IMG/VR virus record: IMGVR_UViG_3300037756_000051
Location: 1 to 52,149 of that record
From: a virus
Taxonomy: Duplodnaviria; Caudoviricetes
Reading direction: 5' to 3' (one strand)
DNA length: 52,149 nucleotides
Shown here one piece after another: positions 8,075 through 44,616 of the stretch. The translations under genes were made by a program, and so were the position numbers. Each line of letters begins with the position of its first letter. The first letter of the stretch is position 1. The notes under the pieces are model-generated. The model saw nothing but the letters and a program-made list of their open reading frames with translations. It was not told where the DNA came from and made no database searches.

Positions 8075-8770
8075 TTGAATGCGCCGGAACTCGTTGATCC
8101 GCAATGCATGGCGGGGAGAGGCATTAGCATGGCCCGGACAATTCGCCGGATAGGCTGGGATGCAGAGTCGAGGTCAAGAAATATTTGCGGCCCGCGATAA
8201 CCTCGGCAGGGCATCAATTCAAGGTTTCTCCTCGCCGTTGGTAGGAGAGAGCCTAGTCGGGAGATTTGGTCAGCGCCTGCTGGTCTGCTCCCGGCTCACC
8301 ATTTCAGTTTTTCACAGTTGCCCGTGTGGAGTAGCCTATCCGGATAGTAGGCTGATGATTTAGGACTCCACATGGTTTCAAGGCGTCCGGGCGCAACTGT
8401 GGAAGAGTTTAGATCAGGGCAGCGCATTGCAGAAGGGAAAGCCCGCCCCCTGCATACTCAGGTGGGCGTCGGTATTAATCCGAACCAAACCCGAAAGGGC
8501 TGGCTGGGGCCTGATCTATTACGCAACTGTGGAAGAGTTTCTGGCGGCGGCGAAAGTCGGGAGTGGGCCGAAAGTCCGACAGGTTGGCGTTTCGGCACAC
8601 TCCGCACCTGTCCCGCCAGAATTCAGCGGTTCACACCGGGCGTAGAAGGATTGGCGAAAGCCGGTCGCCCCGCTCCAGTTTTTGGGGTCAACCCCAATAA
8701 CCTTCTCGGGGTCGGGAACCTAGCGCCAGCCAGAAGCCGGTTCCACTCGCACTGGACCGGCTTCTGGCAA
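8075..8770 (+). ncRNA. array of about 8 self-contained structured RNA units
   Basis: Consecutive domains each closed by a stem, GAAA tetraloops on +, potential pseudoknots, 19-nt repeat at 8392-8410 and 8522-8540. Confidence 0.6.
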
Positions 8771-8830
8771 TTAACCGAGGGATATGAAATGCGCGGTCCT
8801 GTATTTCCGGAATAGCTATGAAGGGCGGCC

Positions 8831-9001
8831 TCAATCAATTTTCATCAGTCGCAATCCTTCGTCGGACAGCCCTTGATTGATAAGCTCAGCCTGAGCCAAG
8901 ATGGTAGCATCCCGGAGCGACGTGGCTCGGACCTGAAACGCGAGGCGCTTCATACCTTCCGAGCTGCCTTGGATGAAAACGGCGTAGGTGTAGTCTCTCA
9001 T
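8831..9001 (-). CDS. hypothetical protein (56 aa, MRDYTYAVFIQG...)
   Basis: AGGAGG RBS on the minus strand; below the ORF-track cutoff. Confidence 0.6.
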   Translation of the reverse strand: MRDYTYAVFIQGSSEGMKRLAFQVRATSLRDATILAQAELINQGLSDEGLRLMKID

Positions 9002-9064
9002 TTCCTATCCTCCTGATTACGAAAGCCTTCAGGGAACGACCAGTAAAGGCCGTCCCGAGAGGGG

Positions 9065-9259
9065 TTAGAAGTCTCTGCATTCAGACACGTCGCGGATGCT
9101 CTCTGCGTTCGTCCAAACGTAGGCGCTGCGCTCGCAAGTGCCGGGAATATCTTGGTCATAGCCAAGCATTTCGCGGAATTCCTTCCAAGCTTCGTGAGCA
9201 GCGTCGAGTTCAGTTTCGTGCTGAAGTTCACCGTTGGCTTTGTCGTAGATGCGGATCAT
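9065..9259 (-). CDS. hypothetical protein
   Basis: GGAGG RBS 8 nt upstream of ATG 9259; downstream of a strong minus-strand promoter. Confidence 0.6.
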   Translation of the reverse strand: MIRIYDKANGELQHETELDAAHEAWKEFREMLGYDQDIPGTCERSAYVWTNAESIRDVSECRDF

Positions 9260-9388
9260 CGTCATTTCCTCCAAGGTTGAAATCGCCTTGAAGAGAGATC
9301 GTATCGCCGCCCGTTTTTGCTGAGTAGCACCTGAGACCGTTTGTTAGACTAGCTCATCCCAGGTCGGGTTATCGTGGCTGATAACTCT

Positions 9389-9459
9389 AATATAGGCGCT
9401 GTGTATTTACTTGTCAATACAAATATTGGGTTGACATTGTATTTATTTGTTTGTACGTG
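9389..9459. promoter_or_regulatory. divergent sigma70 promoters
   Basis: Minus strand TTGACA (9417-9412)-17 nt-TATATT (9394-9389); plus strand TTGACA 9431-9436 with a weak -10, probably giving a leaderless mRNA for ATG 9468. Confidence 0.65.
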
Positions 9460-9467
9460 TCATTACC

Positions 9468-9614
9468 ATGGATACGACAATCACAATCCGCGTCGATAAG
9501 GCATGGCTTGCCAAGATCGACAAGTGGCGCGAAAAGCAGCCAGTACCTCCGGGCCGGTCTGAACTTATCCGGCTTGCCGTCGAGCGTTTCATTTCGAAGG
9601 AGCGCGCGAAATGA
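9468..9614 (+). CDS. ribbon-helix-helix (CopG/Arc-like) regulator
   Basis: MDTTITIRVDKAWLAKIDKWREKQPVPPGRSELIRLAVERF: alternating beta strand plus (S/G)RSE.IR helix. Confidence 0.8.
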   Translation: MDTTITIRVDKAWLAKIDKWREKQPVPPGRSELIRLAVERFISKERAK

Positions 9615-10078
9615 GTCCAAGGAAGTACCCAGAGGGCGCGCATGTGTATGTGTTTGGCGCATCTGAGCCGCCCTACAAAATTGGGTACACGAAAAGTCTC
9701 GCGAGCCGGATAGCGCAACTGCGCAGGGGGAAAAGCAAGAATTCTCCTGGTGGAGCATGGAGCGGCGAATATAAGATTCTGCGCCTTTGCCCACCTGAGA
9801 TATTACCGAAAGATTTAGAGCGGCATCTGCACAGTTGCTATCATCCGTACCGCTGCAACGGAACGAGACTTTTCAGGGCGAGAGACGGTTTAGAGATCCA
9901 TAACTGGTCATTAAACGAATGGTTCGATCTGCCGCTCGAAGCACTTGAAGCCACTATAGATTTTGTGATTGAGCATTTCGGTGACGGATACTCCGCCAAT
10001 TTCTGGACTGGACAGAAGGTGTCATCCCTGTTGTTTTCGTATCACGTTGCGTCGTGCGCATATGATTATGCTGCCTGA
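9611..10078 (+). CDS. GIY-YIG / T5orf172-like nuclease-domain protein
   Basis: VYVF...YKIGYT...R..QL...LERHLH...EWF pattern. Confidence 0.75.
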   Translation: MSPRKYPEGAHVYVFGASEPPYKIGYTKSLASRIAQLRRGKSKNSPGGAWSGEYKILRLCPPEILPKDLERHLHSCYHPYRCNGTRLFRARDGLEIHNWSLNEWFDLPLEALEATIDFVIEHFGDGYSANFWTGQKVSSLLFSYHVASCAYDYAA

Positions 10079-10100
10079 TCCACCGGGCAAGGTGCAGTAG

Positions 10101-10358
10101 ATGAGCGACTGGCAGCCAATCGAAACGCTCCCGCGCAGCGTCATGGAAATTCCCCGTGACGGCATCCTCTTGTGGGGACCAAGCGAAGGGAAGCATTACC
10201 TGGATCGCTTCAAAGCCAATTCCGATTGGTGGCGTCACGCGCTACAGATTGACCCGGAAGAGATGATCTATCCGGTGTTTACGCATTGGATGCCGTTGCC
10301 TGACCCGCCCGCGCCAAGCTCAAGGAGCTTAACCGATGAGCGACCGTCCAGCATTTGA
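10101..10358 (+). CDS. DUF551-like protein
   Basis: MSDWQPIET...THWMPLPDPP. Confidence 0.75.
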   Translation: MSDWQPIETLPRSVMEIPRDGILLWGPSEGKHYLDRFKANSDWWRHALQIDPEEMIYPVFTHWMPLPDPPAPSSRSLTDERPSSI

Positions 10359-24872: not shown

Positions 24873-25460
24873 ATGATTGGACAAAAGTTCGAATGGCTGA
24901 CGGTTATCGCGGACGCAAGACACGGCTATTGGCGGTGTCGATGCAAATGCGGGAAGGAAACGTCACCGAATGCGACTCATTTGAGATCGGGTCGGGTCAG
25001 ATCCTGCGGGTGTTTGCGAAAGTCTCTCAAGGTTACTCACGGGATGACAGGCTCTCCGTCATACAAAGCTTGGACTGCAATGTTGAAGCGATGCAGAAAC
25101 CCGAACAATGCGCAGTTCCATAACTACGGCGGGCGCGGCATCAGGGTTTGCGAGCGTTGGCAAAAGTTCGAAAATTTCTACGCCGACATGGGCGACAAGC
25201 CAGAAGGAATGTCTCTGGATCGTCATCCGGACCACGATGGCAATTATGAGCCCGGCAATTGCCGCTGGGCCACGCAGACACAGCAGATCAGAAACAAGCG
25301 GAATACGGCTCGCGTGACTTACGAGGGCGAAGAGGTTTCGCTTGCAGAACTATGCGAGCAAAAGGGCCTGAAATTGCGCCGCATCAGGCAGCGCTTGGCC
25401 GCAGGAATGCCGATTGAACGGGCACTAATGCCCGGAAAACACAACCGTTGGAACCCTTAA
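24873..25460 (+). CDS. free-standing HNH-type homing endonuclease-like protein
   Basis: W.CRC.CG...SCGC...THG...W..M..RC...YGGRGI.VC.RW..FENF..DMG..P...SLDR...GNYEPGNCRWAT. Confidence 0.85.
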   Translation: MIGQKFEWLTVIADARHGYWRCRCKCGKETSPNATHLRSGRVRSCGCLRKSLKVTHGMTGSPSYKAWTAMLKRCRNPNNAQFHNYGGRGIRVCERWQKFENFYADMGDKPEGMSLDRHPDHDGNYEPGNCRWATQTQQIRNKRNTARVTYEGEEVSLAELCEQKGLKLRRIRQRLAAGMPIERALMPGKHNRWNP

Positions 25461-26854
25461 TGGCCGCACCAAAATACGATCTGTGTCAATGGAATTATCA
25501 AAATCCCCAAGCCTCCGGGCCTTTGCACGTTCCGATGGTCGTCCTGTGCAATACGCCGGATGAGGAAATCGAAGCCAACGTCCGCGAAAACACGGCAAGG
25601 GATCTGACTTGGCTTGCCGGTGTTGACGCGCATGACGGCATCGCGGTCATGGTCGGCGGCGGGTCGTCGGTTGCAGATCATCTTGACGATATTCGCTGCC
25701 TCGTGAGCGAGGGGGCAACGGTCTTCGCGATGAATGCCGCATCGCAGTATCTGCGCGGGCACGGCATCGCCGTTGACTGGCAGGTGACATGCGACGCCAA
25801 GGCTGAAACCGCCGGTCTCGTCGATCTTGGCGCGCGCGGGCATCTCTTTGCCTCGCACGTCAACCCGGCCACGATCAATGCGGCTTCAGTCCCGAGGCTA
25901 TGGCATAGCGCCATTCATTGCAACGAAGACTGGTTTCCGCCTGAGAAGAAGAAGCGCGGCGGATACGCCCTTCTGGGCGGCGAGGCGTCAACCGGACTTG
26001 GTGCGCTCTGCGTCGCCTACTGTCTCGGCTTCCGCCGCATTGAGATATTCGGCTATGACAGTTGCCACCGTGACGATCAGAGCCATGCCTATCCCCAAGC
26101 GATGAATGGCTCCATACCGGTCATGGCGTTCGCTTGGGCGGGCCGGTGGTTCCAGACCTCGGTCACCATGCGGACGCAGGCGGAGCGCTTCCCGATCACC
26201 GCCCAAGCGCTACAGCAGGCGGGCGCTACGGTAGATGTCTGGGGTGACGGCCTGTTGCAGCATATATGGACCGCGCCGCCGGAGAACCTGACCGAACGGG
26301 ATAAATATTCCAAGATGTGGCAGATCGATGCCTATCGTGCATATTCTCCCGGCGAAGTATGCGCCAACCGTTTTCTTGCCGAGATGAGGATCGACGACAC
26401 TGGCCCGGTGATTGATTTCGGCTGTGGCACCGGACGCGGCGGTCTGGCGCTTACGCGAGCCGGGCTTGATGTCACGCTGACCGACTTCGTCAGCAATTGC
26501 CGTGATGAGGAAGCGCTCGAACTGCCATTTCTGGAATGGGATCTGACGCTCCCTTGCGCGCTTCGCGCTCCCTACGGCTATTGCACAGACGTAATGGAGC
26601 ACATCCCTAGCGAAGATGTTGAGGCCGTACTGACTAACATCATGGCGTCGGCTGAAACCGTGTTTTTCCAGATCTCGACGGTCGATGATGATTTCGGAAG
26701 ACTGTTCCTCAACCAGCCGCTGCATCTCAGCGTGCACCCGCATGACTGGTGGCTTGGACTATTCGGATCGCTCGGCTTTGAGGTCCGCAACGCCATCGAC
26801 AACGAAAACGCATCAATTTTTATCGTGACTAGAAAATCGGCGCTAGCAGCTTAG
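25460..26854 (+). CDS. MptE/Maf(DUF115)-like domain fused to a class I SAM methyltransferase
   Basis: N-terminal VGGGSS..FAMN...D...FGYDSC; C-terminal IDFGCGTGRG...CTDVMEHIP. Confidence 0.65.
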   Translation: MAAPKYDLCQWNYQNPQASGPLHVPMVVLCNTPDEEIEANVRENTARDLTWLAGVDAHDGIAVMVGGGSSVADHLDDIRCLVSEGATVFAMNAASQYLRGHGIAVDWQVTCDAKAETAGLVDLGARGHLFASHVNPATINAASVPRLWHSAIHCNEDWFPPEKKKRGGYALLGGEASTGLGALCVAYCLGFRRIEIFGYDSCHRDDQSHAYPQAMNGSIPVMAFAWAGRWFQTSVTMRTQAERFPITAQALQQAGATVDVWGDGLLQHIWTAPPENLTERDKYSKMWQIDAYRAYSPGEVCANRFLAEMRIDDTGPVIDFGCGTGRGGLALTRAGLDVTLTDFVSNCRDEEALELPFLEWDLTLPCALRAPYGYCTDVMEHIPSEDVEAVLTNIMASAETVFFQISTVDDDFGRLFLNQPLHLSVHPHDWWLGLFGSLGFEVRNAIDNENASIFIVTRKSALAA

Positions 26855-27505: not shown

Positions 27506-27705
27506 ACGAACTGGATCAGGTCACGGAATTTGTGAACAGGCAGGCACGCGAGGCAAAGATGGCCTACGACATTTTTCGCGGCTCATATAGAGCAACTGAG
27601 GTTCCACACTGGAATGATCTGCCCGTGTGGATAAGGGATGCGTTGATCCATGCTCACAAGTTCGGCGAGATCAACAATGCGTGGCGAATGAAGGATAGAC
27701 GATGA
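27502..27705 (+). CDS. hypothetical protein
   Basis: Overlaps both neighbours by 4 nt. Confidence 0.45.
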   Translation: MNELDQVTEFVNRQAREAKMAYDIFRGSYRATEVPHWNDLPVWIRDALIHAHKFGEINNAWRMKDRR

Positions 27706-28424
27706 CGCTTAATTTGCTGCAAATTTGCACTCGCGGTCTCGACGAGATTTCGTCATTTAACGTTCCAAACAACATCATCGGCAATAGCGACGATACCGCC
27801 AAGACGCTGCTGGCGGCGGCCTATAAAACGGGCGAAGAGCTGGTGCGCGAATACGACTGGCAGGAGTTGAGCAAGACGGCCACGGTGTTGACCGTGGCCT
27901 CCACATCGCTTTACGATCTGGAAAGTGATTACGAACGCATTGCGCCGGATACGATGTGGAACAATTCCGAAGCGCGCTACATGCGCGGCCACACGACTAG
28001 GCGCAAATGGGCGGCGATCACCAACGCCTCGGTCTATTCCAGCTTCACCTATGACTGGCGGCTGAAGGGCGGGCAGATCCAGGTCTTCCCGACGCCTTCC
28101 AGCGTGTTCACGTTCAACTATGAGTATCTCTCCAACATCTATTGCACCGACAGTGCTGGGGTCGACAGGGCGGACGGATGGGTCAGCGATACCGATCTGC
28201 CGACACTGCCGCAGGATCTCTTCATCTACGGTATCCGCTATTATTTTGCCGACAGCAAGACGCTCGCCAACGCCACGAAATGGGGCGCTGAGTATTACGA
28301 CCTGATCGAAACGCGCCAGAACACCGATGTCCCCGGCGAACGTGTCAACATGGCCGCAAGCGTCAGAGCGCCGCGCGGCCAGTTGCGGCGTCTCAACATC
28401 CCCGATATTATAACGGGCTACTGA
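27702..28424 (+). CDS. head-tail adaptor (tail tubular A-like)
   Basis: Size, position before the nozzle, LLQI...WQEL...Y.L..DY pattern. Confidence 0.65.
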   Translation: MTLNLLQICTRGLDEISSFNVPNNIIGNSDDTAKTLLAAAYKTGEELVREYDWQELSKTATVLTVASTSLYDLESDYERIAPDTMWNNSEARYMRGHTTRRKWAAITNASVYSSFTYDWRLKGGQIQVFPTPSSVFTFNYEYLSNIYCTDSAGVDRADGWVSDTDLPTLPQDLFIYGIRYYFADSKTLANATKWGAEYYDLIETRQNTDVPGERVNMAASVRAPRGQLRRLNIPDIITGY

Positions 28425-28428
28425 TCAT

Positions 28429-29952
28429 ATGCGCCCGCTTCCGGCCAAGATGATCCGCCTTCAGCAGAAGGCGCAGAAATTCGCCGTGCTTCAACAGGTC
28501 CGCGGCCAGTCCATCCCGATCCCGGCCCCGACCGAGGGCATGAACACCCGCGATGGCGTGTCGAGTCTGAGCCCGACCGAATGTCGATCGCTGCGCAATA
28601 TGCTGGCCGAACGCGGCAAATGCGTGATCCGCAAGGGCAAGACCTCGCACCAGACGGTTAGCGCCGTGTCGTCGATCGGCATGATGTTCACGCATGAGGG
28701 CGTCAGCGCCAATGTGATCCTTGCAGCGGCCGGCGGCGAGATTTACAATGTTACCGGAACGCCGTCAGCACTGACCAGCAACACTTACAACAGCGATGTC
28801 TGGTCGGTCGTGCAATTCAACGACACGACAATCGGCGTCAACGGGCAAGACACGCCATGGGCTTATGATGGCTCTACGGTCGGCGCATCCGGCCTCTCCG
28901 GCTCCGGGCTGACGATCACCAATCTGCGCACGGTCCATGTCGTCGGCGTGCGGATGTGGTTCACCGAAGTCGCCAGCGCCGATGTCTGGTATCTTGCGCC
29001 CAACGCCATTACCGGTGTGCTGACGAAATTCCAGCTATCCCAAGAGACCAAGGGCGGCTATTGCGTCGGCATCTACGAATACGGGCCTCTTGCGATTTTC
29101 ATCATGTCCACCGGGGAAATCGTCACCTATCAAGGCGATCCGGGGACGGATTTCGCCCAGGCAAAAACCTATCAGGCCCCGATTCCTGTGGGGTACGATC
29201 CGGCCATTGACGTCAATGGCGAGCCGGTGATCATGACGGACTCAGGGCCGCTGCCATTCGAGGCAATCGCACGTGGGCTAGACGATAATGCCGTCGATCA
29301 GGGGCCATGGGGCAAGATCACGCCGTCATGGGCGGCGGATTTTGAGAGTTATGGCTCCAATGCCGGATGGAACGCGGTGTTCTTCAAGGGCCTCGTGATC
29401 CTCAATCTGCAAGTCGATAGCACGACCAGCAAACAGTGGGTTTTCAACACGCGTACCAAGAGTTGGTCATTTTTCGACGATCTGGATGGCTACCAGTTCA
29501 CGGAAAGCGGCGGCGTGCTGTATTTCGGCGACAAGGGATCAGGCGAAATATTCACCCATACCGGCGGAACGAATGATGGCGATTCGATCGTCGGCACGAT
29601 CCGAGGCGGCTTTATCTATCCGTTCCAATCCCAAGTCAATGGCCAATACACGCTTGCGCGCCTGAACGTTGAGGCAACCGGCACAGTCACGGGGCAAATC
29701 CAGGTTGATACGGATTACCGCGAGCTGGGCATTAATGCGCCTGAAATCCCGCTTGCTTCGTCCGGCTCTGGGCCGTGGGGCGAGCCGTGGGGATCGCCGT
29801 GGGGCACGAATGGCCAGCCAATCCTGAAATGGTCTAGCGTCAAGGGCTTCGGGCGCTCGGTTGCCCCTGTCGTACAGTTCAATTCGCAGGCTGATGACCT
29901 TGCCTATTACGGCATCGATCTGATTGCTGCGCAATGTGGCGTGACGGGGTAG
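28429..29952 (+). CDS. tail nozzle / DNA stabilization protein (P22 gp10-like)
   Basis: PAPTEG.N.RD N-terminus, beta-rich, GE...YQG.PG, QWVFNT.T..W. Confidence 0.7.
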   Translation: MRPLPAKMIRLQQKAQKFAVLQQVRGQSIPIPAPTEGMNTRDGVSSLSPTECRSLRNMLAERGKCVIRKGKTSHQTVSAVSSIGMMFTHEGVSANVILAAAGGEIYNVTGTPSALTSNTYNSDVWSVVQFNDTTIGVNGQDTPWAYDGSTVGASGLSGSGLTITNLRTVHVVGVRMWFTEVASADVWYLAPNAITGVLTKFQLSQETKGGYCVGIYEYGPLAIFIMSTGEIVTYQGDPGTDFAQAKTYQAPIPVGYDPAIDVNGEPVIMTDSGPLPFEAIARGLDDNAVDQGPWGKITPSWAADFESYGSNAGWNAVFFKGLVILNLQVDSTTSKQWVFNTRTKSWSFFDDLDGYQFTESGGVLYFGDKGSGEIFTHTGGTNDGDSIVGTIRGGFIYPFQSQVNGQYTLARLNVEATGTVTGQIQVDTDYRELGINAPEIPLASSGSGPWGEPWGSPWGTNGQPILKWSSVKGFGRSVAPVVQFNSQADDLAYYGIDLIAAQCGVTG

Positions 29953-29988: not shown

Positions 29989-30453
29989 TTGGATAAGAAT
30001 AACCCTTATGCACGGACAAAGACTTTCGGCAATGGACAGCCAGCATACGGCTTTGGCGAGGGATTTGGTCGCTACCTTGGTTTGCTAGATGGCGAGTCGA
30101 GTGCGCCTCCACAGGCTGCATCGCCAGTATCACAATCATATGGTAGCATAAACCCGATGAAGGTCTTGCCGCCTTCAGCCTTCGGAAGGAATGATCAAGC
30201 ATCAGCCTCAGATTTTAATGACTTCCTGTCTCGCCTTTCTGGTGGCGTGGGGACACAACCCGTGCCACCATCTCCATCCCCATTGATGCCGGGTCCAGCA
30301 GACATGATGGATTGGCGATCAGTCCCATATCAGGCAGGTCCATCAAGATTGCAGGCGATGTCAAGCCCCGTGATGCCGAAGGATTACCCTGAATCCAGCA
30401 TGGCTCGGCTCAGTGCTGTGCTTCGCGGTGGGAGGCGTGACGGGCTAACTTGA
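29989..30453 (+). CDS. low-complexity protein ending in the shared MPKDY...MARL..VLRG peptide
   Basis: AAGGA RBS, TTG start, TGATG coupling to the next gene. Confidence 0.5.
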   Translation: MDKNNPYARTKTFGNGQPAYGFGEGFGRYLGLLDGESSAPPQAASPVSQSYGSINPMKVLPPSAFGRNDQASASDFNDFLSRLSGGVGTQPVPPSPSPLMPGPADMMDWRSVPYQAGPSRLQAMSSPVMPKDYPESSMARLSAVLRGGRRDGLT

Positions 30454-31736
30454 TGCCGCGAGATTATGCTGAAACCGGCATGGATCGCCTCAGGGCGGCG
30501 CTTCGCGGTTCGCCGGAAGACGATTTTGCCTATGGCGAGGGTATCCCCGAAGATGCGACATGGCGCAACCTTCTGCCCATGGCTGAATTCGGTCTCGGTA
30601 TGGCTCCGGTCTCTGGAGAGGCTATAGCTGCGCGCGACGCGTGGGACGCCTCGGGACGGGCCGGGAACGCGCTTCTGAGCGGCGATTACGGGGAAGCCGC
30701 CTCAGATTACCTGAACATGGGAACCGGCCTTCTCGGCGCAATCCCCGGCGCTGGCATCATCGCACGCGGCACGAAACGCGGTGCTGCATGGATGGACCGG
30801 AATTTGCCGGAAGGGTTTAACCGGCTGCTGGACTCTGTGTATCCGCAAGGCTACGTGCCGAATGATACGGCAGCCGCCTTTCCAGGTTGGCACGGCTCGC
30901 CGCATGATTACCCGGCCGAACGTCTGGTCCGCAAGCAGGACGGTACGACCGAATTCATTTCCGGCCAGCCTGATGTCCTTCCTGACATCCCGCCCGGCCA
31001 TGATCTGATCCAGGATTTTCCGCTTGGCCGCATGCGATTGGACAAGATCGGGACGGGAGAAGGCGCGCAGGTCTATGGCCATGGGCTTTATCTTGCGGAA
31101 AATCCGGCAGTTGCGCAAGAATATCAAAAAGCCCTCGTAAAGAAACAGCCAATTCCACAGGATGCAATACCTGAAGGCGGCGATTATTATGCAAAGTTAA
31201 AGTATGAATTCCCGCCTGATGCATTAGAAACAGCAGAAAAGAAATTAAGGGCATCCATTGAGGATATGAAGGATGCAGCCGGTGACGCTCGTTTCCCCTA
31301 CCGTCAAGAAGCTGCAATAGCGGATTTACCCAGACTGCACAAAGAACTTGAAACCCTTGAACAGGTCAAGGCATTGCCGGGCGGCACGCGCCAAGGCAAT
31401 CTCTACCGCGCAGAGATCGACGCAGAGCCTGAAGACCTACTGGATTGGGATCTGCCGCTCAATCAGCAGAGTGAGAAGATACAAAGTATCGTAAGGCCGC
31501 TTTTTACCAAGGAAAACGGACTTGGCCACATTCAGGACATTGATCACCTGCCCGGCGAGAATATTGTCAAACTGCTAACGTTCGGTCTCAAGCCAGACGG
31601 TACAGCAGCGGCACTCCGCGAAGCGGGTATCCCCGGCATTCGCTATCTGGATCAGATGTCACGCGATGCTGGCGAAGGATCGCGAAATTTCGTCATCTTC
31701 GACGACAAGCTGGTTAAGATGCTGGGCAAAGAGTGA
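30453..31736 (+). CDS. cassette A: shared N-terminal region + ADP-ribosyltransferase-like (polyvalent-protein type) domain
   Basis: WHGSPH...KIGTGEGAQVYGHGLYLAE...GIPGIRYLD...NFVIFD. Confidence 0.6.
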   Translation: MPRDYAETGMDRLRAALRGSPEDDFAYGEGIPEDATWRNLLPMAEFGLGMAPVSGEAIAARDAWDASGRAGNALLSGDYGEAASDYLNMGTGLLGAIPGAGIIARGTKRGAAWMDRNLPEGFNRLLDSVYPQGYVPNDTAAAFPGWHGSPHDYPAERLVRKQDGTTEFISGQPDVLPDIPPGHDLIQDFPLGRMRLDKIGTGEGAQVYGHGLYLAENPAVAQEYQKALVKKQPIPQDAIPEGGDYYAKLKYEFPPDALETAEKKLRASIEDMKDAAGDARFPYRQEAAIADLPRLHKELETLEQVKALPGGTRQGNLYRAEIDAEPEDLLDWDLPLNQQSEKIQSIVRPLFTKENGLGHIQDIDHLPGENIVKLLTFGLKPDGTAAALREAGIPGIRYLDQMSRDAGEGSRNFVIFDDKLVKMLGKE

Positions 31737-32914
31737 TGCCGAAAGACTATGCCGAGACGGGGATGGAGCGGTTAAGGACTGCGCTCAAAGGGTCTTTCAC
31801 ACCGGGAAGCCGCGAGTGGTACGCCGATCAAATCTACGGAACTGGCGTACCTGCCGACGTTGAGCAGAAGCGGGCGGAATCCGCCGACTTTATCGCGTCC
31901 ATGACGCCGGTAATCGGGGAAGGCATGGCGCTCCGGGATGCGTGGGCCGCGTCCGGCAGGGGCGGACAGGCACTCACACAGGGAGACATGCAAGGCGCGG
32001 CGGGCGAATATATGAACCTGCTGTCTTCGCTTGCGGGCGGGCTTCTGCCGCTCTCGGTGCAGAAACTCACGTCTGCCGCCATGCCGTCCGATCCGAAAAA
32101 CACGACGATGATTTTTGCGGGGCCGACCGCGAAAACGGCGGATCATGCTGCGCTTGCCAAGGCTCAGGAGATGAAAGCACAAGGCGCATCGCGTGCTGAC
32201 ATCTGGCGTGAAACCGGCTGGGATCTGGAAAAGGCAGATCAGATTCCACGGTTCGAGATCGATGATAGCAAAAGCCTTTATGATCAAAATGCTTACAAGG
32301 AACTGAAAGAATCCGCAGAGTTTGACGGTAGAACCTACAATCCGTCGTTTGATAACGCGCAACTTGATTTTGTCCTAGACCACGATCAGCTATACTCAGC
32401 TTATCCAGACATGGGTGAAATGCCTTTAGCATTTTTTCCTAATCAAGGCGCTATGCGAGGCGAATATGGTGGCCTAAGTCATAAAAGCGGTATGGCGCTA
32501 CGCAATGACTTAGATGATGCGACGGGACGGTCCACTGCGCTCCATGAGGCGCAGCACGCAGTTCAAGGTCGAGAAGGCTTCCCGCGCGGCGGATCACAGA
32601 CAGGCCCTTATCAAGCTGGCGAACGAGACACTCTAATACGGCAGGAGTTTAATCGTCGCAAGAAAGGCGCGATCGACAATCCATATCTCGATAGCGTGCC
32701 GACCGATGCGCAGATCATGGAAGAGGCTAAGTCATTTGTTGATAGCCCTGTCGGCAGAGAGCTTGCTTACAGGCGTCTCGCAGGCGAGGTCGAAGCCCGC
32801 AACGTCCAGTCCCGCATGAACATGACCGCCCCCGAGCGCCGCGCCACTCCCCCGTGGGAAACGCAGGACGTTCCAGACGACCAGCAGATCGTGCGATTTG
32901 GTGGAAATAAGTAA
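31736..32914 (+). CDS. cassette B: shared N-terminal region + LPD23-like / HExxH metallopeptidase domain
   Basis: IWRETGW...RFEIDDS...L.H.QLY.AYP...HEAQHAVQ..EGF..GG...YRRLAGEVEARNV. Confidence 0.65.
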   Translation: MPKDYAETGMERLRTALKGSFTPGSREWYADQIYGTGVPADVEQKRAESADFIASMTPVIGEGMALRDAWAASGRGGQALTQGDMQGAAGEYMNLLSSLAGGLLPLSVQKLTSAAMPSDPKNTTMIFAGPTAKTADHAALAKAQEMKAQGASRADIWRETGWDLEKADQIPRFEIDDSKSLYDQNAYKELKESAEFDGRTYNPSFDNAQLDFVLDHDQLYSAYPDMGEMPLAFFPNQGAMRGEYGGLSHKSGMALRNDLDDATGRSTALHEAQHAVQGREGFPRGGSQTGPYQAGERDTLIRQEFNRRKKGAIDNPYLDSVPTDAQIMEEAKSFVDSPVGRELAYRRLAGEVEARNVQSRMNMTAPERRATPPWETQDVPDDQQIVRFGGNK

Positions 32915-34077
32915 TGCGGGTCGCTACCTACAAATACCGGCTCTTGCCGACGCGGAAACAGCACGAGGCACTTGTAGCAATACTCGACGCGCAGCGCGCG
33001 CTCTACAACGCCGCGCTTGCTGAGCGTATCGACTGCTACCGCAAAACCGGGCGGACCATTTCTTATATCGATCAAAGCAGATCTTTGACCGAATGCCGCA
33101 AGCAGATCCCGGAGATGGCGGACGCTCCGCTCTGCATCCAGCGCGGCACGCTCAAACGTCTGGACGAAGCGTATAAAGGGTTCTTCCGTCGTGTGAAGTC
33201 GCGCAACGGCAAAGCTGGCTTTCCCCGGTTCCGTGGTAAGGGATGGTTCAACAGTTTTGACTTCAACGAAATGTACGGCATCCGCTTCGACGGCAAGCGC
33301 CTGCGTTTAAAATCAATGCCATCCGGCTTGCGTGTCCATCTTCACCGTCCGATGCCGCAAGGCAAAATCCTCACCGCCAAATTCAAGCGCGATCACAAGG
33401 GTTGGTCCGTCTGCTTGGCGATTCGCGTTGAGATGCCGGAGAAATGCGTTGTTCAATCGGCCATCGGCCTTGACGTTGGCCTGAAGGCTTTCGCCTATCA
33501 GAGCGATGGCATTGTCATCCCCAACCCGAGGATTGCTCGCCGAGCAGAGCGCGAAATGCGTCGTCGCCAGCGGGCGCTCTCGCGTTGCAAGCGCGGATCG
33601 AATTGCCGCCGCAAGGTCAAGCGCGAAGTGTCGCGCCAACACGCGAAGATCCTCAACACCCGCACGACGTGGCTGCATCAGCAGTCGGCGCGGATCGCGA
33701 ATTCCTATGACCTGATTGTCGCCGAAGATCTCAACATCAAAGGCATGGTCAGAAACAAACACCTGTCCCGCTCGATCTCGGATGCGAGCTGGTCGCGGTT
33801 CTTCGAAATGTTGTCTTACAAGGCTGAGAGAGCCGGTTCGATATTCATCAAGGTCAATCCGAGAAACACATCGCAGAACTGTTCGGGATGCGGAGAGAAG
33901 GTTCCGAAATCCTTGGCCGTGCGGACGCATAGCTGTCCGCATTGCGGCCTCGTAATCGACCGGGACTGGAACGCCAGCCTGAACATTCTGCACGCCGCTG
34001 TAGTGGGTGGCGGGTTCGATAACGTAGGCGGTTACGTCAAGCGTCGAACCGGAAAACTCACGGAGATAACGAAGTGA
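32914..34077 (+). CDS. tnpB: IS200/IS605-family TnpB (solo, no tnpA)
   Basis: YKYRL.P...LYN.AL N-terminus; RuvC IGLDVG, VAEDL, DRDWNA intact; CSGC...CPHC zinc finger. Confidence 0.93.
   Translation: MRVATYKYRLLPTRKQHEALVAILDAQRALYNAALAERIDCYRKTGRTISYIDQSRSLTECRKQIPEMADAPLCIQRGTLKRLDEAYKGFFRRVKSRNGKAGFPRFRGKGWFNSFDFNEMYGIRFDGKRLRLKSMPSGLRVHLHRPMPQGKILTAKFKRDHKGWSVCLAIRVEMPEKCVVQSAIGLDVGLKAFAYQSDGIVIPNPRIARRAEREMRRRQRALSRCKRGSNCRRKVKREVSRQHAKILNTRTTWLHQQSARIANSYDLIVAEDLNIKGMVRNKHLSRSISDASWSRFFEMLSYKAERAGSIFIKVNPRNTSQNCSGCGEKVPKSLAVRTHSCPHCGLVIDRDWNASLNILHAAVVGGGFDNVGGYVKRRTGKLTEITK
33993..34060 (+). ncRNA. probable omega RNA scaffold overlapping the tnpB 3' end
   Basis: GCCGCT/GGTGGC and GGTTCGA...TCGAACC stems ending GGAAAACTCA. 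Boundary inferred. Confidence 0.45.
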
Positions 34078-34102: not shown

Positions 34103-34591
34103 ATGACCGAGATCATCCTCGGCCAAGACGCCCGCGTCGCCCGCTGGATGTTCGAAGTCTCTAACTCGCGCCCGATGCAAATAAACGCAGCGATCGGATT
34201 GGCAGACGGCACCGGAAATCTGGTCGGTGGGATAGCTTTCACAGGCTTCAATGGTTCCGATATCGAGTGCCATTTCGTCGGTCCCGGCACGCTATCGCGT
34301 CGTGTCGTCCGCCTGATCTTCGGTATAGCCGTGATGCAGTTCAATCTCAACCGGCTGACGGTTCACACCCGCAAGCGTTCTATGGCGCGCGGCGTCACCA
34401 AGCTCGGCGCAAAATTCGAATGCGTGTGCAAAAGGCTTTATGGTCCGACCGATGCGGCGGAACACGCCGGCAGAAGATACTATTTCCCTAGAGAGACTAT
34501 GCTCAAACTCGCTGGATTGAAAGAACCTCGCGGCGAACCTGCCCGCGCAGCCTACCCGACTAAAAGGATAAGACATAATGGGTTTTCTTGA
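34103..34591 (+). CDS. GNAT-fold protein (P22 gp14 / T7 gp13-like position)
   Basis: G.LVGG..F...L.RL......KLG.KFE pattern between nozzle and ejection genes. Confidence 0.6.
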   Translation: MTEIILGQDARVARWMFEVSNSRPMQINAAIGLADGTGNLVGGIAFTGFNGSDIECHFVGPGTLSRRVVRLIFGIAVMQFNLNRLTVHTRKRSMARGVTKLGAKFECVCKRLYGPTDAAEHAGRRYYFPRETMLKLAGLKEPRGEPARAAYPTKRIRHNGFS

Positions 34592-35777
34592 TGATTGGTT
34601 TGGCATTGAAACGCCAAAGCCGCCTGATCCATACGCGACGGCCGATGCGCAATATCAATACAATAAGCAGGCCGCCGAAGACTTCATGCGGATGGGGTCA
34701 TTGGATCAATTCGGCCCATTCGGCTCGACCACTTACGAGCGCGGCCCGGATGGCCTACCGACCTCGCAGACGGTCAACCTGTCGCCTGAAGTTCAATCCT
34801 GGCTTGACAGCCAGTTCGGAGCGTCCGCAGGACTGAGCGACGCCGCACTAAGGCAGATCGGCTATCTACCGGAAGACAAGTTCCAGCTTCCAACCGGACC
34901 GTCAGCGACGGATTACGCCACCGGGGCATTCGGTTCCGAACTGCTCGACCCGTCCAGCTTCTCCGATCTGTCGGACATTTCGCAGACTTCGTATGATCAG
35001 GCAAGATCACTGTTCGAGCCTGACATCGAGAACGCCCGCAACGCAATGGAAGTCAAGCTTGCGCAGCGTGGAATCCCGGTCGGCTCGGAAATCTACAATC
35101 AGGAAATGGACCGTCTCGATCGTTCAGCCAACCAGGCTTATTCCGGGGCCGCCAGACAGGCGCAACTGGATGCAGGCAACGAGCAGTCGCGCCGCTTCAA
35201 CACGGCGCTACAGGGCCAGACATTCGGGCAGAACCAGTATCAGACGAACCTGTCGAATGATCTGCTGGAGCGCAACCAGCCTTACGCGGAAGCCTCGGCC
35301 TTGCTCGGGACAAATCCATCGTTCCAGACGCCGAGCTTCATGAACACGCCGACGCAGGCGATTTCCTCGCCCGATTATCAGGGGCAGGTTAACGCGAATT
35401 ATCAGGCGAAGGCAAATCAAAGTTCCGGTTTGTGGAACACGCTGGGTAGCCTCGGCAGTGCCTTTGCCGGGTCTAATGCTGGGTCAGCGGCGCTGGTCGG
35501 TCTATTCTCCGATGAAGACATGAAGGAAATGCGCGAGCCGGTTGACGGCGAGACGATCCTTGCCGGCTTCCGTGACATGCCTATTGACGAGTGGAACTAT
35601 ACCGACGAGGCGCGCATGGATCATGGCGTGCCGGGCGGAAGACATATCGGGCCGATGGCTCAAGACTGGAAAGAGCAGTTCGGCGGAGACGGTAAAACCA
35701 TCCCCGTCGTTGACGCGCTAGGGCGCTTAGCCAAGGCCGTGCAAGCGCTCGATAAGCGGACGATGAGGGCGGCATGA
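34578..35777 (+). CDS. DNA ejection / pilot protein with C-terminal S74-like chaperone domain
   Basis: P.PPDP..TA..Q N-terminus, Gln/Ala-rich, SDE.MKE...WNY...HIGPMAQD. Confidence 0.65.
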   Translation: MGFLDDWFGIETPKPPDPYATADAQYQYNKQAAEDFMRMGSLDQFGPFGSTTYERGPDGLPTSQTVNLSPEVQSWLDSQFGASAGLSDAALRQIGYLPEDKFQLPTGPSATDYATGAFGSELLDPSSFSDLSDISQTSYDQARSLFEPDIENARNAMEVKLAQRGIPVGSEIYNQEMDRLDRSANQAYSGAARQAQLDAGNEQSRRFNTALQGQTFGQNQYQTNLSNDLLERNQPYAEASALLGTNPSFQTPSFMNTPTQAISSPDYQGQVNANYQAKANQSSGLWNTLGSLGSAFAGSNAGSAALVGLFSDEDMKEMREPVDGETILAGFRDMPIDEWNYTDEARMDHGVPGGRHIGPMAQDWKEQFGGDGKTIPVVDALGRLAKAVQALDKRTMRAA

Positions 35778-36493
35778 CCCTTACACAGGAACGGCTCAAA
35801 GAGCTTCTGGAATACAGGCCCGATGAGGGCCTTTTTTATTGGCGGAAGGCGCGGGGGCATAAGAAAGCCGGGGCAGTCGCTGGATATTTGCGAGAAGACG
35901 GCTTTTGCAAGATCAGCATAGATAAACAATCTTATGGATCGCAGAAACTGGCCCACTTTTATGAACACGGTGAGTGGCCAAAGAGCGCCGATGCGTATCC
36001 GGTATTGACGCAGGAGAGATTGATAGAACTTCTTCATTACGACCCCGACACAGGCTTATTCACTCGCTTAAGGACTCGCGGCTCAAGTAAGGCGGGGGCT
36101 ATTGCTGGGGGAATTAGTAAAGGGCCACGAGATGGATACCTAAGGATCAAAGTTGACGGAAAGCGATACAAGGCCCACCGCCTCGCATTTTTATACATGA
36201 CCGGAAAGTGGCCTAATGGCCTTGTAGATCACAAAGATACAAACAAGCTGAACAATTCTTGGAAAAATTTGCGTGAATCGACGAATGGCCAAAATAAAGC
36301 GAATGGCAGAACGTACAAAAACAACAAGCTGGGCATTAAGGGTGTAAGCCTAAGGGGAAGGAAATACCATGCCCGAATATATCATTCGGGCAAGCTGACA
36401 ACACTCGGAACATTCGAAACGGCGGAAAAGGCAAATCAAGCCTACTATGCCGCAGCAACTGAAGTTCATGGTGGATTCGCGAGGGCATCGTAA
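35774..36493 (+). CDS. HNH-AP2 homing endonuclease with duplicated N-terminal module
   Basis: LTQERL.ELL.Y.P twice, AHRLAFLYM...VDHKD.NKLNN...NLR, AP2-like LGTF.TAE.A..AY. Confidence 0.88.
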   Translation: MTLTQERLKELLEYRPDEGLFYWRKARGHKKAGAVAGYLREDGFCKISIDKQSYGSQKLAHFYEHGEWPKSADAYPVLTQERLIELLHYDPDTGLFTRLRTRGSSKAGAIAGGISKGPRDGYLRIKVDGKRYKAHRLAFLYMTGKWPNGLVDHKDTNKLNNSWKNLRESTNGQNKANGRTYKNNKLGIKGVSLRGRKYHARIYHSGKLTTLGTFETAEKANQAYYAAATEVHGGFARAS

Positions 36494-38145
36494 TGGATAT
36501 TACCGATCAAATCATCGGCGTTGAGAGTAACGGAAATCCATTTGCCAAAAATCCACGCTCGTCGGCTCTTGGATCGGGGCAATTCCTCGGAGAAACCTGG
36601 CTCGAAATGATCCAGCGCCATCGTCCCGACCTGACGCAAGGCCGTAGCCGTGAAGAGATCCTTTCTATGCGCACAGACCCGAACCTATCCAGAGACATGA
36701 CGCAAGCTTACGCAGACCAGAATTCGGCCTTCCTACGGTCGAAAGGCTACGAGGCGACGCCCGCGAATACGTACCTATCTCATTTTGCTGGTCCAGCGGG
36801 AAGTGCGGCAATCCTTGCCAATCCCGGCGCAACAGTCGAGGCCCTTCTCGGCCCGGAAGCCGTGCGCGCCAATCCCTTCCTGCAAGGGATGACCGGACAG
36901 GATGTCATCGACTGGGCTGGCCGGAAAATGTCGCCAAGCCAAGCGATGGCAAAGAACCTGAAGAAGCAATTCGGCACGCCGGAGACTGCGCAAGGGCCAG
37001 CCGCTGCATCGGGGGATGACATGGGCAGGTTGAAAGCAGCACTCTCCGGCAAGACCTACGACCCAGACAATCTTTCCGGCGCTGACCGGCTGATCGATCA
37101 GGGCCAGAGCATCGCGGGCACGTCCGGCAATCCGTGGGGCGCAATCGGGGGCACGATCCTTGCTGGGCTTGGCGGTTATGAACGGAGCCAGGAGCGCGGA
37201 AACGAGAAGGCTTACAGAGAAGAGCTTGGCCAGACGCTCAGCGGTTCAGAGAACCCGATCGATATGGCGCGCAAGCTTATGACCTCGCCAGACCCAAAGC
37301 TGCAGGAGGCAGGAATAGACTTGTACGCCAAGGCGTCGATGCTGGCGCAGAAGGGCGGCACGCAGACGGCGGCGATACAGGAATATGAACTTGCGAAAAG
37401 CGAAGGCTTCGAGGGCGATTTCGCTTCCTTCCTGAAGGAAAAGAAATCGCCCCTTGTCACCATACAGGGTGAAGAAGAGTACGCCAAAACACGCGGCAAG
37501 GCGCTTGGCGAAGAATTCGGCACAATCCAGACCAATGCGCAGCAGGCTACGGACCGCATCGGCCAGCTTCGCCAAATCGATGATTTGCTGTCCAACCCCA
37601 ATGTCTACACCGGGACTGGAGCCGAAGCGATCAATGCGCTGAAGCGCACAGCTCAGACCTTATTCGGGCAGGATAGCATTGAAGGCGTTGCCGATGCCGA
37701 CGCCGCCCGCCGCGTCTCCACGGAGATGGCTCTAAGCCTGAAAGAAAATCTACCGGGTCCGATGTCAGATTCCGATCGTGAGTTTTTGCAGGCCATCCCG
37801 CCGAATATCGGAGACACGGCGCAGGGGCGCAAGCTCCTCGTCAGCCTCATGACGGCGAAGGAGCAACGCAAGATTGAGGCCGCTGAACTTGCGCGGGAAT
37901 ACGCCGAGCAGAACAACGGTCGCCTTGATGATGGCTGGTATAGCGTTCTCGGGCGCTATAATGCGCAAAATCCTGTTTTTACGCCTGAACTGATGGAGGA
38001 AGCGCGTACATTCAGCGGTGAAGGCCAGCAACAATCGCCTGCGGCAGGCGTTGCGCCCCGCATTCAGAGTGATGATGACTTCGACGCGCTGCCATCTGGA
38101 TCACAATTTATCGGCCCTGACGGCAAGCTGCGGAGGAAGCCATAA
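36493..38145 (+). CDS. ejection protein with N-terminal lytic transglycosylase-like domain
   Basis: IIGVESNG...SSA.G.GQFL..TW...YL.HFAG; C-terminal DFDALPSG..FIGPDG..RRKP. Confidence 0.75.
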   Translation: MDITDQIIGVESNGNPFAKNPRSSALGSGQFLGETWLEMIQRHRPDLTQGRSREEILSMRTDPNLSRDMTQAYADQNSAFLRSKGYEATPANTYLSHFAGPAGSAAILANPGATVEALLGPEAVRANPFLQGMTGQDVIDWAGRKMSPSQAMAKNLKKQFGTPETAQGPAAASGDDMGRLKAALSGKTYDPDNLSGADRLIDQGQSIAGTSGNPWGAIGGTILAGLGGYERSQERGNEKAYREELGQTLSGSENPIDMARKLMTSPDPKLQEAGIDLYAKASMLAQKGGTQTAAIQEYELAKSEGFEGDFASFLKEKKSPLVTIQGEEEYAKTRGKALGEEFGTIQTNAQQATDRIGQLRQIDDLLSNPNVYTGTGAEAINALKRTAQTLFGQDSIEGVADADAARRVSTEMALSLKENLPGPMSDSDREFLQAIPPNIGDTAQGRKLLVSLMTAKEQRKIEAAELAREYAEQNNGRLDDGWYSVLGRYNAQNPVFTPELMEEARTFSGEGQQQSPAAGVAPRIQSDDDFDALPSGSQFIGPDGKLRRKP

Positions 38146-43603: not shown

Positions 43604-43704
43604 GACTAGCGCAACCTTTCAGAATTGAGTACATATAGCGAACGCGACGGGTGCTGGTAACACCGCGCCGCGTTCTTGACATCGAACCTGTAAAGGAGGC
43701 TCGA

Positions 43705-44616
43705 ATGCCCGCCACACGTCTAAAGCGTATCTGTTCGGTTGCCAACTGCGAAAATCCAACCGTTGGCCGTGGCTTATGCAGAAAACATTACCTGCGACAG
43801 TATAAACGTCCAGATGGGGACCTCTCCGATCCCAAGTTTGCTGACGGCTGTTCGGTTGCCGGGTGCAAGGGCAAACACCACAGTCACGGACTTTGCAGAA
43901 CGCACGTCATGGCGAAGCAATCTGCTGGTCCTCTCTCCTTGGAGAGGCTCAAGGAAGTGCTGCATTATGATGCAGATGCGCGCGTTTTCTATTGGCGTGC
44001 TGATCGCGGCAAGAACAAGGCTGGGTCGGTAGCCGGCAGCGTTCAGACGGACGGTTATTCGCGCATCATGATCGACCACAAGGGCTATTCGGTCTCGCGG
44101 CTTGCTCACTTCTATGAACATGGGGAATGGCCGTCGAAGTCAGGCGATCTGACGCAGGACCTTCTCAAAAGGTTGTTCGAATACGACCCCGAGACTGGTT
44201 TCTTCTGGCATCGGACGGTCAAGGACGACAGCGAAAGAACGCGCCGGGCTGGGGCTATCGCTGGCGGAGGCTATCGCTACATCAAGATCAACCACAAGAG
44301 TTACCTCGCCCAACGTCTGGCCTTCCTCTACATGATTGGCCGTTGGCCAAGCCGCCACGTCGATCATAGAGATCGTGATCGTGACAATAACGCTTGGCGC
44401 AATCTGAGGGAGGCCACGCGTCGCCAGAACAGCGGCAACCAAGCCGCCCGCGTCAATAATAAGCTCGGCGTGAAGGGCGTTCACCGCGTTCGCAACGGAT
44501 ACCGCGCCGTCGTTGCTCGGAAGCATCTCGGCACATTTGCAACCATCGAAGAAGCAAGCGCCGCCTATGAAGCGGGAGCTAAAAAGTATTTCGGTGAATT
44601 CGCAAGATCTTCATAG
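43705..44616 (+). CDS. HNH-AP2 homing endonuclease with two N-terminal C3H zinc fingers
   Basis: CSV..C...GLC..H twice, duplicated module, VDHRD.D.DNN.W.NLR; AGGAGG RBS before ATG 43705. Confidence 0.85.
   Translation: MPATRLKRICSVANCENPTVGRGLCRKHYLRQYKRPDGDLSDPKFADGCSVAGCKGKHHSHGLCRTHVMAKQSAGPLSLERLKEVLHYDADARVFYWRADRGKNKAGSVAGSVQTDGYSRIMIDHKGYSVSRLAHFYEHGEWPSKSGDLTQDLLKRLFEYDPETGFFWHRTVKDDSERTRRAGAIAGGGYRYIKINHKSYLAQRLAFLYMIGRWPSRHVDHRDRDRDNNAWRNLREATRRQNSGNQAARVNNKLGVKGVHRVRNGYRAVVARKHLGTFATIEEASAAYEAGAKKYFGEFARSS

Follow-up and report, generated by a model that had tools for sequence, protein, structure and literature searches.

Why would a phage carry, side by side, two genes that begin alike and end in different enzyme-like domains? 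This question is raised by a complete IMG/VR virus record (IMGVR_UViG_3300037756_000051; linear, 52,149 bp, CheckV 100%), which was analyzed over its full length and is called the window here. Its plus strand contains the tandem cassette genes cas1 (30453..31736, 427 aa) and cas2 (31736..32914, 392 aa). The product of cas1 comprises an N-module and an ADP-ribosyltransferase (ART)-like domain, and that of cas2 comprises a short form of the N-module, an LPD23 domain, and a HExxH metallopeptidase-like domain. The two genes belong to a family of modular architecture, in which the N-module is under selection, tails of the polyvalent-protein repertoire are exchanged at the junctions, and the genes lie in a structural context. 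We consider, with a probability of about 0.6, that cas1 and cas2 represent a polymorphic three-part family (leader, N-module, and exchangeable enzyme) whose proteins are loaded into the virion, ejected, and act on the host.

Shared leader and N-module

Both genes begin, as an earlier note on this DNA had described, at TGATG stop/start overlaps with MP[RK]DYAETGM[DE]RLR.AL[RK]GS. BLASTP aligned residues 1–88 of cas1 with residues 1–94 of cas2 (47/95 identities, 49%, E = 1e-20) and gave no other significant alignment. Within the record, cas1 residues 1–110 matched three places: cas1 itself, 31736–32044 (52%, E = 2.5e-23), and 30373–30450. The last of these (30373..30450, plus strand) is a leader stub of 26 residues, MPKDYPESSMARLSAVLRGGRRDGLT, in the frame of the upstream open reading frame (ORF) ORF-A. 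Its alignment (26 aa, 50%, E = 0.004) is weak alone, but it lies in register directly before cas1, which bears out the third leader copy that had been noticed at the end of ORF-A. The leader pattern with up to three mismatches was found three times in the window against 0.01 expected, and none of 100 shuffles gave three matches; the test is partly circular because the pattern was derived from the same copies. At the DNA level, 38–49 of 66 positions (58–74%) are common among the three leaders, and the longest exact match between the cas1 and cas2 N-regions is 10 nt, indicating that the copies are not substrates for homologous recombination now.

The N-module is approximately 125 aa long and helical, with a 90-aa core. 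Its end is formed by a hydrophobic stretch rich in Gly, a basic ARGTKRGAAWMDRNLP segment, and a junction of the P-S-D-P type. The last ~35 residues of the core as conserved in the family (IPGAGIIARGTKRGAAWMDRNLPxGxNRLLD) are present in cas1 and missing from cas2. The two proteins had been said to diverge near an xFxG motif; the motif is present (AFPGW, IFAGP), but cas2 diverges earlier.

A word-index search with cas1 residues 1–110 as the query found 52 proteins of 234–748 aa. Profile A2, which covers the 90-aa core and was derived from the window together with 12 viral loci, was run against 1.84 billion representatives and matched 123 clusters at E ≤ 1e-3, of which 56 reached E ≤ 1e-10 and 41 reached E ≤ 1e-30. 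The count of 123 retains likely false matches among its weakest rows (multi-stretch matches; cytochrome, BNR, and Sortilin families), which are probably due to an Asp-box-like ARGTKRGAAWMD segment. The median start position of the core is residue 43.5, and starts past residue 150 occur in only 9 of 150 matched sequences. The tally of C-termini and copy number showed that the module is portable: at least 42 tail groups stand behind it in these clusters, and the N-region is not confined to the two C-domains of the window.

The pre-core and 90-aa N-core of cas1 (30510..30845, plus strand) showed 78–84% nucleotide identity to eight loci. When the 90 core codons were compared with those of the related loci L004–L009 and L014, 24–33 differed only synonymously and 7–14 nonsynonymously (27 and 7 for L004). 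The differences are mostly synonymous, indicating that the protein sequence of the module is under purifying selection. The shared part had also been likened to the pre-toxin PT-TG segment, which our searches do not support. PF14449 gave no match at E ≤ 10 in five N-regions and none in a six-frame search of the record; one weak language-model lead was a protein-atlas cluster (score 0.87) in which 57% of the members carry PT-TG.

Tails swapped at the module/tail junction

The region 30510–30845 of cas1 was aligned with the eight loci, and seven alignments stop exactly at 30845, the last core codon. The alignment with L007, which has an ART-type tail, continues to 30907. The cas2 C-domain (32089–32898) showed 93.6% nucleotide identity to L006 over 810 nt, and the cas2 N-region had no nucleotide match in L006. 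This identity begins at 32089, within the PSDP junction of cas2 (32087..32098, plus strand), which marks the recombination breakpoint. Position 32089 corresponds to L006 position 5943, three bases past the end of the L006 core (5940), at P-S|D-P. In P0012, the protein of L006, the tail shows 95% identity to that of cas2 over 271 aa, whereas the core is 92% like that of cas1 and 59% like that of cas2. The seven cores closest to cas1 (91–94%) are all followed by non-ART tails. Recombination thus exchanges the tails precisely at the module/tail junction and, in the peptidase class, at a conserved 3′ tail as well. The swapping by recombination that had been proposed is upheld by these sharp DNA breakpoints, but its proposed site, the shared 5′ sequence, needs correction: the main breakpoints are the 3′ end of the module and the conserved 3′ tail, not only the leader.

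The GC content at third codon positions (GC3) of the N-modules is 0.64–0.72, near that of the nozzle, portal, and major-head genes (0.71–0.72). It falls to 0.52–0.53 in both tails (0.53 in the cas1 ART domain), with minima of 0.30–0.36. This drop fits a foreign origin of the tails.

The conserved 3′ tail of cas2, RATPPWETQDVPDDQQIVRFG (32840..32902, plus strand), has 15–17 of 21 codons identical to those of five loci. The conserved 3′ end of the peptidase class, RATPPWETQDVPDDQQIVRF, is nearly invariant at the nucleotide level in five other loci. The centre of this tail (~45 nt) showed almost no synonymous change in L004, L006, L009, L010, and L014, and approximately 30% of the N-core codons of the same genes differ synonymously. 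An RNA fold in the 3′ tail was not convincing (z = −1.84; 11 of 200 shuffles were as good). In other tail types the motif is seen again, either C-terminally or at joints within the chain, and a loose pattern of it was found in 38 of 153 sequences. The end of cas2, RFGGNK*, resembles the internal joint RFGNQGP and not the terminal RFR*. Because of this joint-like end, and because tnpB starts on the cas2 stop codon, a further module may have been cut off from cas2, and the tnpB insertion possibly truncated the gene.

In cas1, a 9-codon prefix, MPRDYAETG (30453..30479, plus strand), stands ahead of an internal Met, and some relatives (P0013) begin at that Met. The corresponding cas2 prefix, MPKDYAETG(ME) (31736..31767, plus strand), matches the start of an unrelated 104-aa gene of L008 over 32 nt at 97% identity. 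There the prefix (9092–9123, 27–32 nt) heads a gene located downstream of the L008 cassette, and the homologues of this gene in L007 and L009 have no prefix. Only the window and the L008 record contain the exact leader pattern in IMG/VR. A looser pattern gave one extra IMG/VR match (L020) within an unrelated ORF; it was rejected as probably due to chance. The prefix may conceivably serve as a short targeting peptide. We read the tandem pair, the ORF-A stub, and the orphan prefix of L008 as scars of cassette gain and loss. The tandem arrangement itself holds for the window phage alone and not as a family feature, since each of the 13 related virus records has one copy (13/13).

Enzyme-like tails behind the module

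The tails are diverse. Pfam annotation of the 52 first matches gave LPD23 in 24, ART-PolyVal in 12 (all under the cut-off), GNAT in 2, and no domain in 14. Among the 123 representatives, the counts were LPD23 29, ART-PolyVal 15, PBECR3/1/2 2/1/1, GNAT 2, SLT 1, DUF3990 2, DUF6973 1, and DUF6098 1. All-against-all BLAST of the 138 tails of at least 60 aa yielded 42 groups, and the largest group splits into cas2-type (44), cas1-type (22), and two other sets (8 and 4). P0059 (684 aa), in which the core, LPD23/peptidase, and an ART-like domain form one chain, is the link between the cas1-type and cas2-type sets, and two LPD23 units stand in P0075 (1045 aa). P0059, P0068, and P0075 each combine at least two unrelated effector domains in a chain; cas1 contains a single catalytic domain, and cas2 contains LPD23 and one peptidase. 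Given the fused relatives P0059 and P0075, the family extends from proteins with a single effector behind the tag to small polyvalent proteins.

In cas2, the LPD23 domain (residues 126–179; 32111..32272, plus strand) scored 68.3 bits against PF18838, above the cut-off of 27. The zinc-binding motif HEAQH (32543..32557, plus strand) contains H270, E271, and H274. These three residues, E280, and E351 were invariant in 39 aligned sequences, so that the protein has the HExxH and downstream Glu of zincin-like metallopeptidases (MPTases). Foldseek with the cas2 model found no PDB structure at E ≤ 0.001; its weak top rows were PprI/IrrE (E = 0.27–0.7) and the putative metallopeptidase 4l7a (E = 1.8). 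The cas2 tail aligned to parts of giant proteins in 46 phage records, of which 39 are Pseudomonas phages, including the F116 group. One of these giant proteins, H66_0060 of a Pseudomonas phage, contains a cas2-type module and is annotated as structural and as 'verified by mass spectrometry as part ...'.

The ART-fold domain of cas1 (residues 133–427; 30849..31733, plus strand) contains WHGSPH, YGHGLYLAE, and RNFVIFDD, and its predicted local distance difference test (pLDDT) values are mostly >85. The best solved match of the tail in the VIA search was 9k3a_B (Z = 10.5, root-mean-square deviation 4.0, 149 residues). Tankyrase 2 (Z = 8.8), ParT (8.1), and diphtheria toxin (7.8) matched over 124–130 residues. 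In BFVD, 27 matches were found at E ≤ 0.001, and several of them are named ART-PolyVal-like or large-polyvalent-protein. Foldseek with the cas1 model found nothing in PDB at E ≤ 0.001, and a sequence search of PDB with the cas1 family found nothing credible. Another tail group of the family, represented by P0057, passes PF18760 at 41.9 bits. The earlier note's placing of both C-domains in the polyvalent-protein repertoire is supported by the LPD23 score of 68 bits, the ART fold, and the ART-PolyVal-like matches in BFVD, which reach E = 7.5e-21.

The cas1-type group keeps HGS, GxGLYF, and [ST][RS]N[YF]V[IV]FD. H147 is invariant and the Tyr of G-L-Y is conserved. D417, which closes the last strand, is common, but some members have S or N there. 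Cas1-type proteins nearly always have N412, whose position, by analogy with the PARP motif, may be that of the E of H-Y-E enzymes. A 38-residue insertion lies between the first ART motifs (30903–31016, residues ~151–188), and only the L012 protein P0045 shares it among 20 aligned cas1-type proteins. The activity of the domain had been doubted because N replaces E in the last strand. However, ARTs of polyvalent proteins are described as H-Y-D (PMC5512222). D417 could be the Asp of such a triad. Since cas1 keeps H147, the Tyr, and D417, the doubt is softened but not removed.

Gene context and proposed role

The plus-strand gene order of the window is adaptor, nozzle-like, ORF-A, cas1, cas2, tnpB, GNAT-like, phrog_6121, HNH endonuclease, a 550-aa protein, and a 761-aa protein. 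The tail adaptor gene (27702..28424) matches Pfam SU10_adaptor (E = 4.6e-10) and phrog_6013 (tail protein). The following putative nozzle/hub gene (28429..29952, 507 aa) matches phrog_5107 (E = 2.9e-44) and phrog_3287 (virion structural protein), and its product has no Pfam or PDB match. Beyond the cassettes lies a virion structural or ejection-type gene (34578..35777; phrog_6121, E = 2.8e-37; Peptidase_S74 chaperone), and relatives also match phrog_4287, 'DNA ejection protein'. The 550-aa product (36493..38145; phrog_4067 transglycosylase, E = 1.2e-19) is a candidate internal protein. These flanking PHROG matches agree with the placement of the cassettes between nozzle and ejection genes in the earlier note; the name 'nozzle' itself comes from the gene's place after the SU10-adaptor gene.

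ORF-A (29989..30453, plus strand; 154 codons, Pro/Ser/Gly-rich) is the sole open frame in the gap before cas1, and its last 27 codons repeat the cassette leader. It is an orphan, as homologues were found neither among proteins of near length nor in the 13 related loci. Its GC3 is 0.48, compared with about 0.70–0.72 in the nozzle, portal, and major-head genes. L012 and L015 have no ORF-A, and the cassette abuts the nozzle gene there.

A solo tnpB ORF (32914..34077, plus strand) directly follows cas2 and matches Pfam OrfB_IS605, a Cas12f1-like TNB domain, and phrog_506 (E = 2.5e-98). Its first base lies on the cas2 stop codon, and its end is 26 nt short of the next gene. No insertion sequence (IS) ends were found around it, and Rfam had no match anywhere in the window. 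The next gene is GNAT-like (34103..34591, plus strand; phrog_4470). The idea that it is a detached cassette tail was rejected, as its sequence does not resemble the GNAT tail of P0004 and L012 and L015 also have it as a gene of its own. Two HNH endonuclease genes lie amid the structural genes (35774–36493 and 43651–44616; phrog_99, E = 2e-79 and 3.5e-73), and the GC3 of the first is 0.50, well under that of the nozzle, portal, and major-head genes. The structural module also encodes a 468-aa protein (25448–26854) that combines MptE-like and methyltransferase domains and is kept in L012 (71% aa identity), L013, and L010. Away from the cassettes, short patches at 8309–10347 have 94–98% nucleotide identity to L008 and L010, and the three phages appear, from these sequences, to share a mosaic gene pool.

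The context of the cassette was inspected in the 13 related virus records and the window, 14 records in all. The cassette gene directly follows a P22 gp10-like hub gene in L004, L005, and L014, and lies just before the hub gene in L011. It directly follows the portal gene in L007–L009, with overlapping stop and start codons; in L010, one small ORF lies between portal and cassette, and the major head gene is next. It follows a nozzle-like gene in the window, L012, and L015, and in the latter two the upstream gene is a homologue of 28429–29952. In L013, it stands between a lytic-domain protein and ejection-type proteins. Two candidates for a universal partner were rejected, as phrog_6121 occurs in 8 of the 13 records and a 609-aa protein in 5. 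Many enzyme ends stand behind one module, always beside capsid or tail genes, which suggests that the proteins are probably injected modifiers of the host.

We propose a three-part mechanism. A short variable leader is followed by the strongly conserved helical N-module, which would place the protein in the virion interior (the portal/ejection-protein core) of podovirus-like phages, and by one or more exchangeable enzyme modules of the polyvalent repertoire. The protein would leave the capsid with or ahead of the DNA, and its tail enzyme would modify host targets in the newly infected cell, serving takeover or counter-defence. For cas1, the reaction may be ADP-ribosylation or another NAD-dependent reaction, and for cas2, proteolysis or self-processing.

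Cyanophage A4 may serve as a structural model. It has the same order of adaptor, nozzle, and small ORF, followed by the 380-aa gp29, of which only the N-terminal 92 residues are ordered, in the innermost layer of the pre-ejectosome (PMC12002296). By this analogy, the N-terminus of the cassette proteins would be an anchor in the capsid core. An ART-like domain is physically located in the A4 capsid core, namely 9k3a_B, the best match to the cas1 tail (Z = 10.5), although the fold match covers one domain only. This domain spans residues 1278–1602 of 9k3a chain B (L017 20116–25269, minus strand), and chain B probably corresponds, judging from residue numbering, to gp27. HHalign of the N-core with gp29, and of the cas1 family with the gp27 region, gave probabilities of 0.2–0.3 (0.2 for gp29), so that no sequence similarity was detected. 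The term 'ADP-ribosyl' has 0 occurrences in the text of the A4 paper (PMC12002296).

The same comparison suits another explanation, in which the proteins are structural or maturation parts of the ejection apparatus. The N-module would then sit in the channel or plug and the tails would serve the virion, with the HExxH domain processing internal proteins and the ART-like domain providing non-catalytic packing as in A4. The gene position is that of ejection and plug genes, self-processing roles have been discussed for MPTase domains (PMC5512222), and the A4 chain with the ART-like domain forms a structural layer of the pre-ejectosome. In addition, ...QQIVRF followed by G marks the module joints and could be a cleavage site. 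However, the bulk of these proteins is exchanged among at least 42 tail groups, with GNAT, RNase, SLT, and unfamiliar domains among them, which is unexpected of a purely structural part, and H-G-S, G-x-G-L-Y-F, and HExxH..E are conserved as would be expected for active enzymes. We regard this explanation as unlikely.

Still less likely are unpackaged late enzymes, held at the membrane or assembly site by the hydrophobic Gly-rich stretch and acting in the producing cell, for example to exclude superinfecting phages, to time lysis, or to modify the host machinery. In favour of this reading, MGTGLLGAIPGAGII forms a hydrophobic segment (Kyte-Doolittle 1.49 across 15 residues), small membrane subunits are found several times among the generic fold matches to the N-helices (Z about 6–7, within noise for helices), and the core is kept across different virion architectures. 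However, the 19-residue hydropathy maximum of 1.22 is under the expectation for a membrane-spanning helix, the genes are tightly coupled to portal, hub, or nozzle genes in 14 of 14 records, and homologous tail modules are annotated as virion components in a cultured phage (H66_0060).

The absence of cognate immunity genes that the earlier note had pointed out was confirmed. The cas1 and cas2 genes overlap by one base and tnpB is next, leaving no gene between or after them as immunity gene. In the relatives, the small downstream gene is unchanged while the tail type changes (L004 vs. L005; L007 vs. L008 vs. L009), indicating that it is not a cognate immunity gene. The family therefore has the conserved N-part and recombining C-domains of polymorphic toxins but no tail-specific downstream immunity gene. 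That the genes are classical polymorphic toxins for competition between bacteria, as proposed for the MuF toxins of temperate phages, is very improbable: the conserved N-terminus and recombining toxin-like C-termini would suit it, but none of the downstream genes changes along with the tail, representative bacterial genomes yielded no copy so that prophages are not evident, and the carriers are phage records with complete structural modules.

The proposed virion-delivered effectors resemble several published systems. MuF toxins and effectors (Jamet et al. 2017, PMC5576092; Iyer et al. 2017, 2022) likewise have a conserved virion-associated N-module, varied enzymatic C-termini, and a location in the structural module. 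The present family differs in that Pfam found no MuF domain (Phage_Mu_F) in the N-regions or in full-length cas1, the module is only ~125 aa, the tails are mostly of the polyvalent repertoire, and the carriers look like lytic podovirus-type phages, without prophage copies in representative bacterial genomes. MuF genes usually lie behind the portal gene, and the cassettes of L007–L010 also follow the portal gene, directly or one small ORF on. Polyvalent proteins (Iyer et al. 2017, PMC5512222) share LPD23, a putative zincin-like MPTase, ART-PolyVal, PBECR RNases, GNAT, and SLT with the family, as well as the genomic context and the proposed role in early infection. They have 2–15 domains per chain (PMC5512222), whereas cas1 and cas2 each have one effector unit behind a common N-module, and this N-module is outside the Pfam LPD families. 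The T4 internal proteins and Alt, an ADP-ribosyltransferase, carry a capsid targeting sequence (CTS), a short N-terminal leader common to unrelated, fast-evolving cargo (PMC3012670); it guides this cargo into the prohead in a scaffold-dependent way and is cut by a prohead protease. They have no sequence relation to the family; here the leader is followed by a large conserved module, the carriers are podovirus-like and not myoviruses, and only the shared 9-codon prefix was seen. The literature consulted on related systems does not mention the module, and no search was aimed at the module itself. By analogy, we rate the cas family as a variant of polymorphic virion-delivered effectors, which would work like MuF, the T4 CTS, and polyvalent proteins but lacks the MuF domain of the first, has no sequence relation to the leader of the second and, in the window, lacks the multi-domain chains of the third.

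Several points weigh against virion delivery. Capsid loading and injection, and likewise the presence of family members in virions, are argued from gene context and analogy. The module was found neither in cultured phages and plasmids (tblastn, E ≤ 1) nor in representative bacterial genomes. The N-core has no detectable likeness to a Pfam family, a PDB chain, or A4 gp29: five N-regions matched nothing in Pfam even at E ≤ 10, the N-module had no match in PHROG, and a PDB sequence search gave nothing credible. AlphaFold2 predicted the N-module as a helical hairpin of moderate confidence (two helices with pLDDT of about 68–78, then a disordered linker), and a wide VIA search with the cas2 model gave only generic helical-hairpin matches to the N-part (Z ≤ 7.0). 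For the enzyme part, cas1 had no match to Pfam ART families at E ≤ 0.01 and did not reach the gathering score of PF18760 (31.2 bits); the 12 ART-PolyVal matches among the first 52 homologues stay under the cut-off, and most homologues fall below it. Finally, the core is 78–86% identical at the nucleotide level across phages with unrelated portal, hub, or nozzle genes. A nearly unchanged core with such different neighbours, and no universal partner, fits poorly with one specific docking partner.

We also put forward a more tentative idea, which we think rather doubtful. The N-module, maybe with the 9-residue prefix, would be a portable virion-loading and ejection tag across podovirus-like phages with unrelated portal, hub, or nozzle genes, acting via a common feature such as the packaged DNA, the portal channel, or the host envelope. 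If this is true, any enzyme behind P-S-D-P would be delivered, and the module would act as a natural, general cargo handle for short-tailed phages. It would be comparable to the capsid targeting sequence of T4, with the difference that it could pass from one phage lineage to another.

Phage proteins that are co-injected with the DNA decide the first minutes of infection, and the known modules for such delivery are few, namely MuF, the capsid targeting sequence of T4, and giant polyvalent proteins. Apparently new here are a strongly conserved N-module, a precise exchange junction, and at least 42 tail groups, most of them without an assigned function. The contrast between one effector per tag (cas1, cas2) and both tails behind one tag (P0059) bears on how polyvalent proteins are assembled. 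If the module directs packaging and ejection, the list of tails would be a catalogue of candidate takeover and anti-defence enzymes, and the junction would be a natural site for chosen cargo in short-tailed phages.

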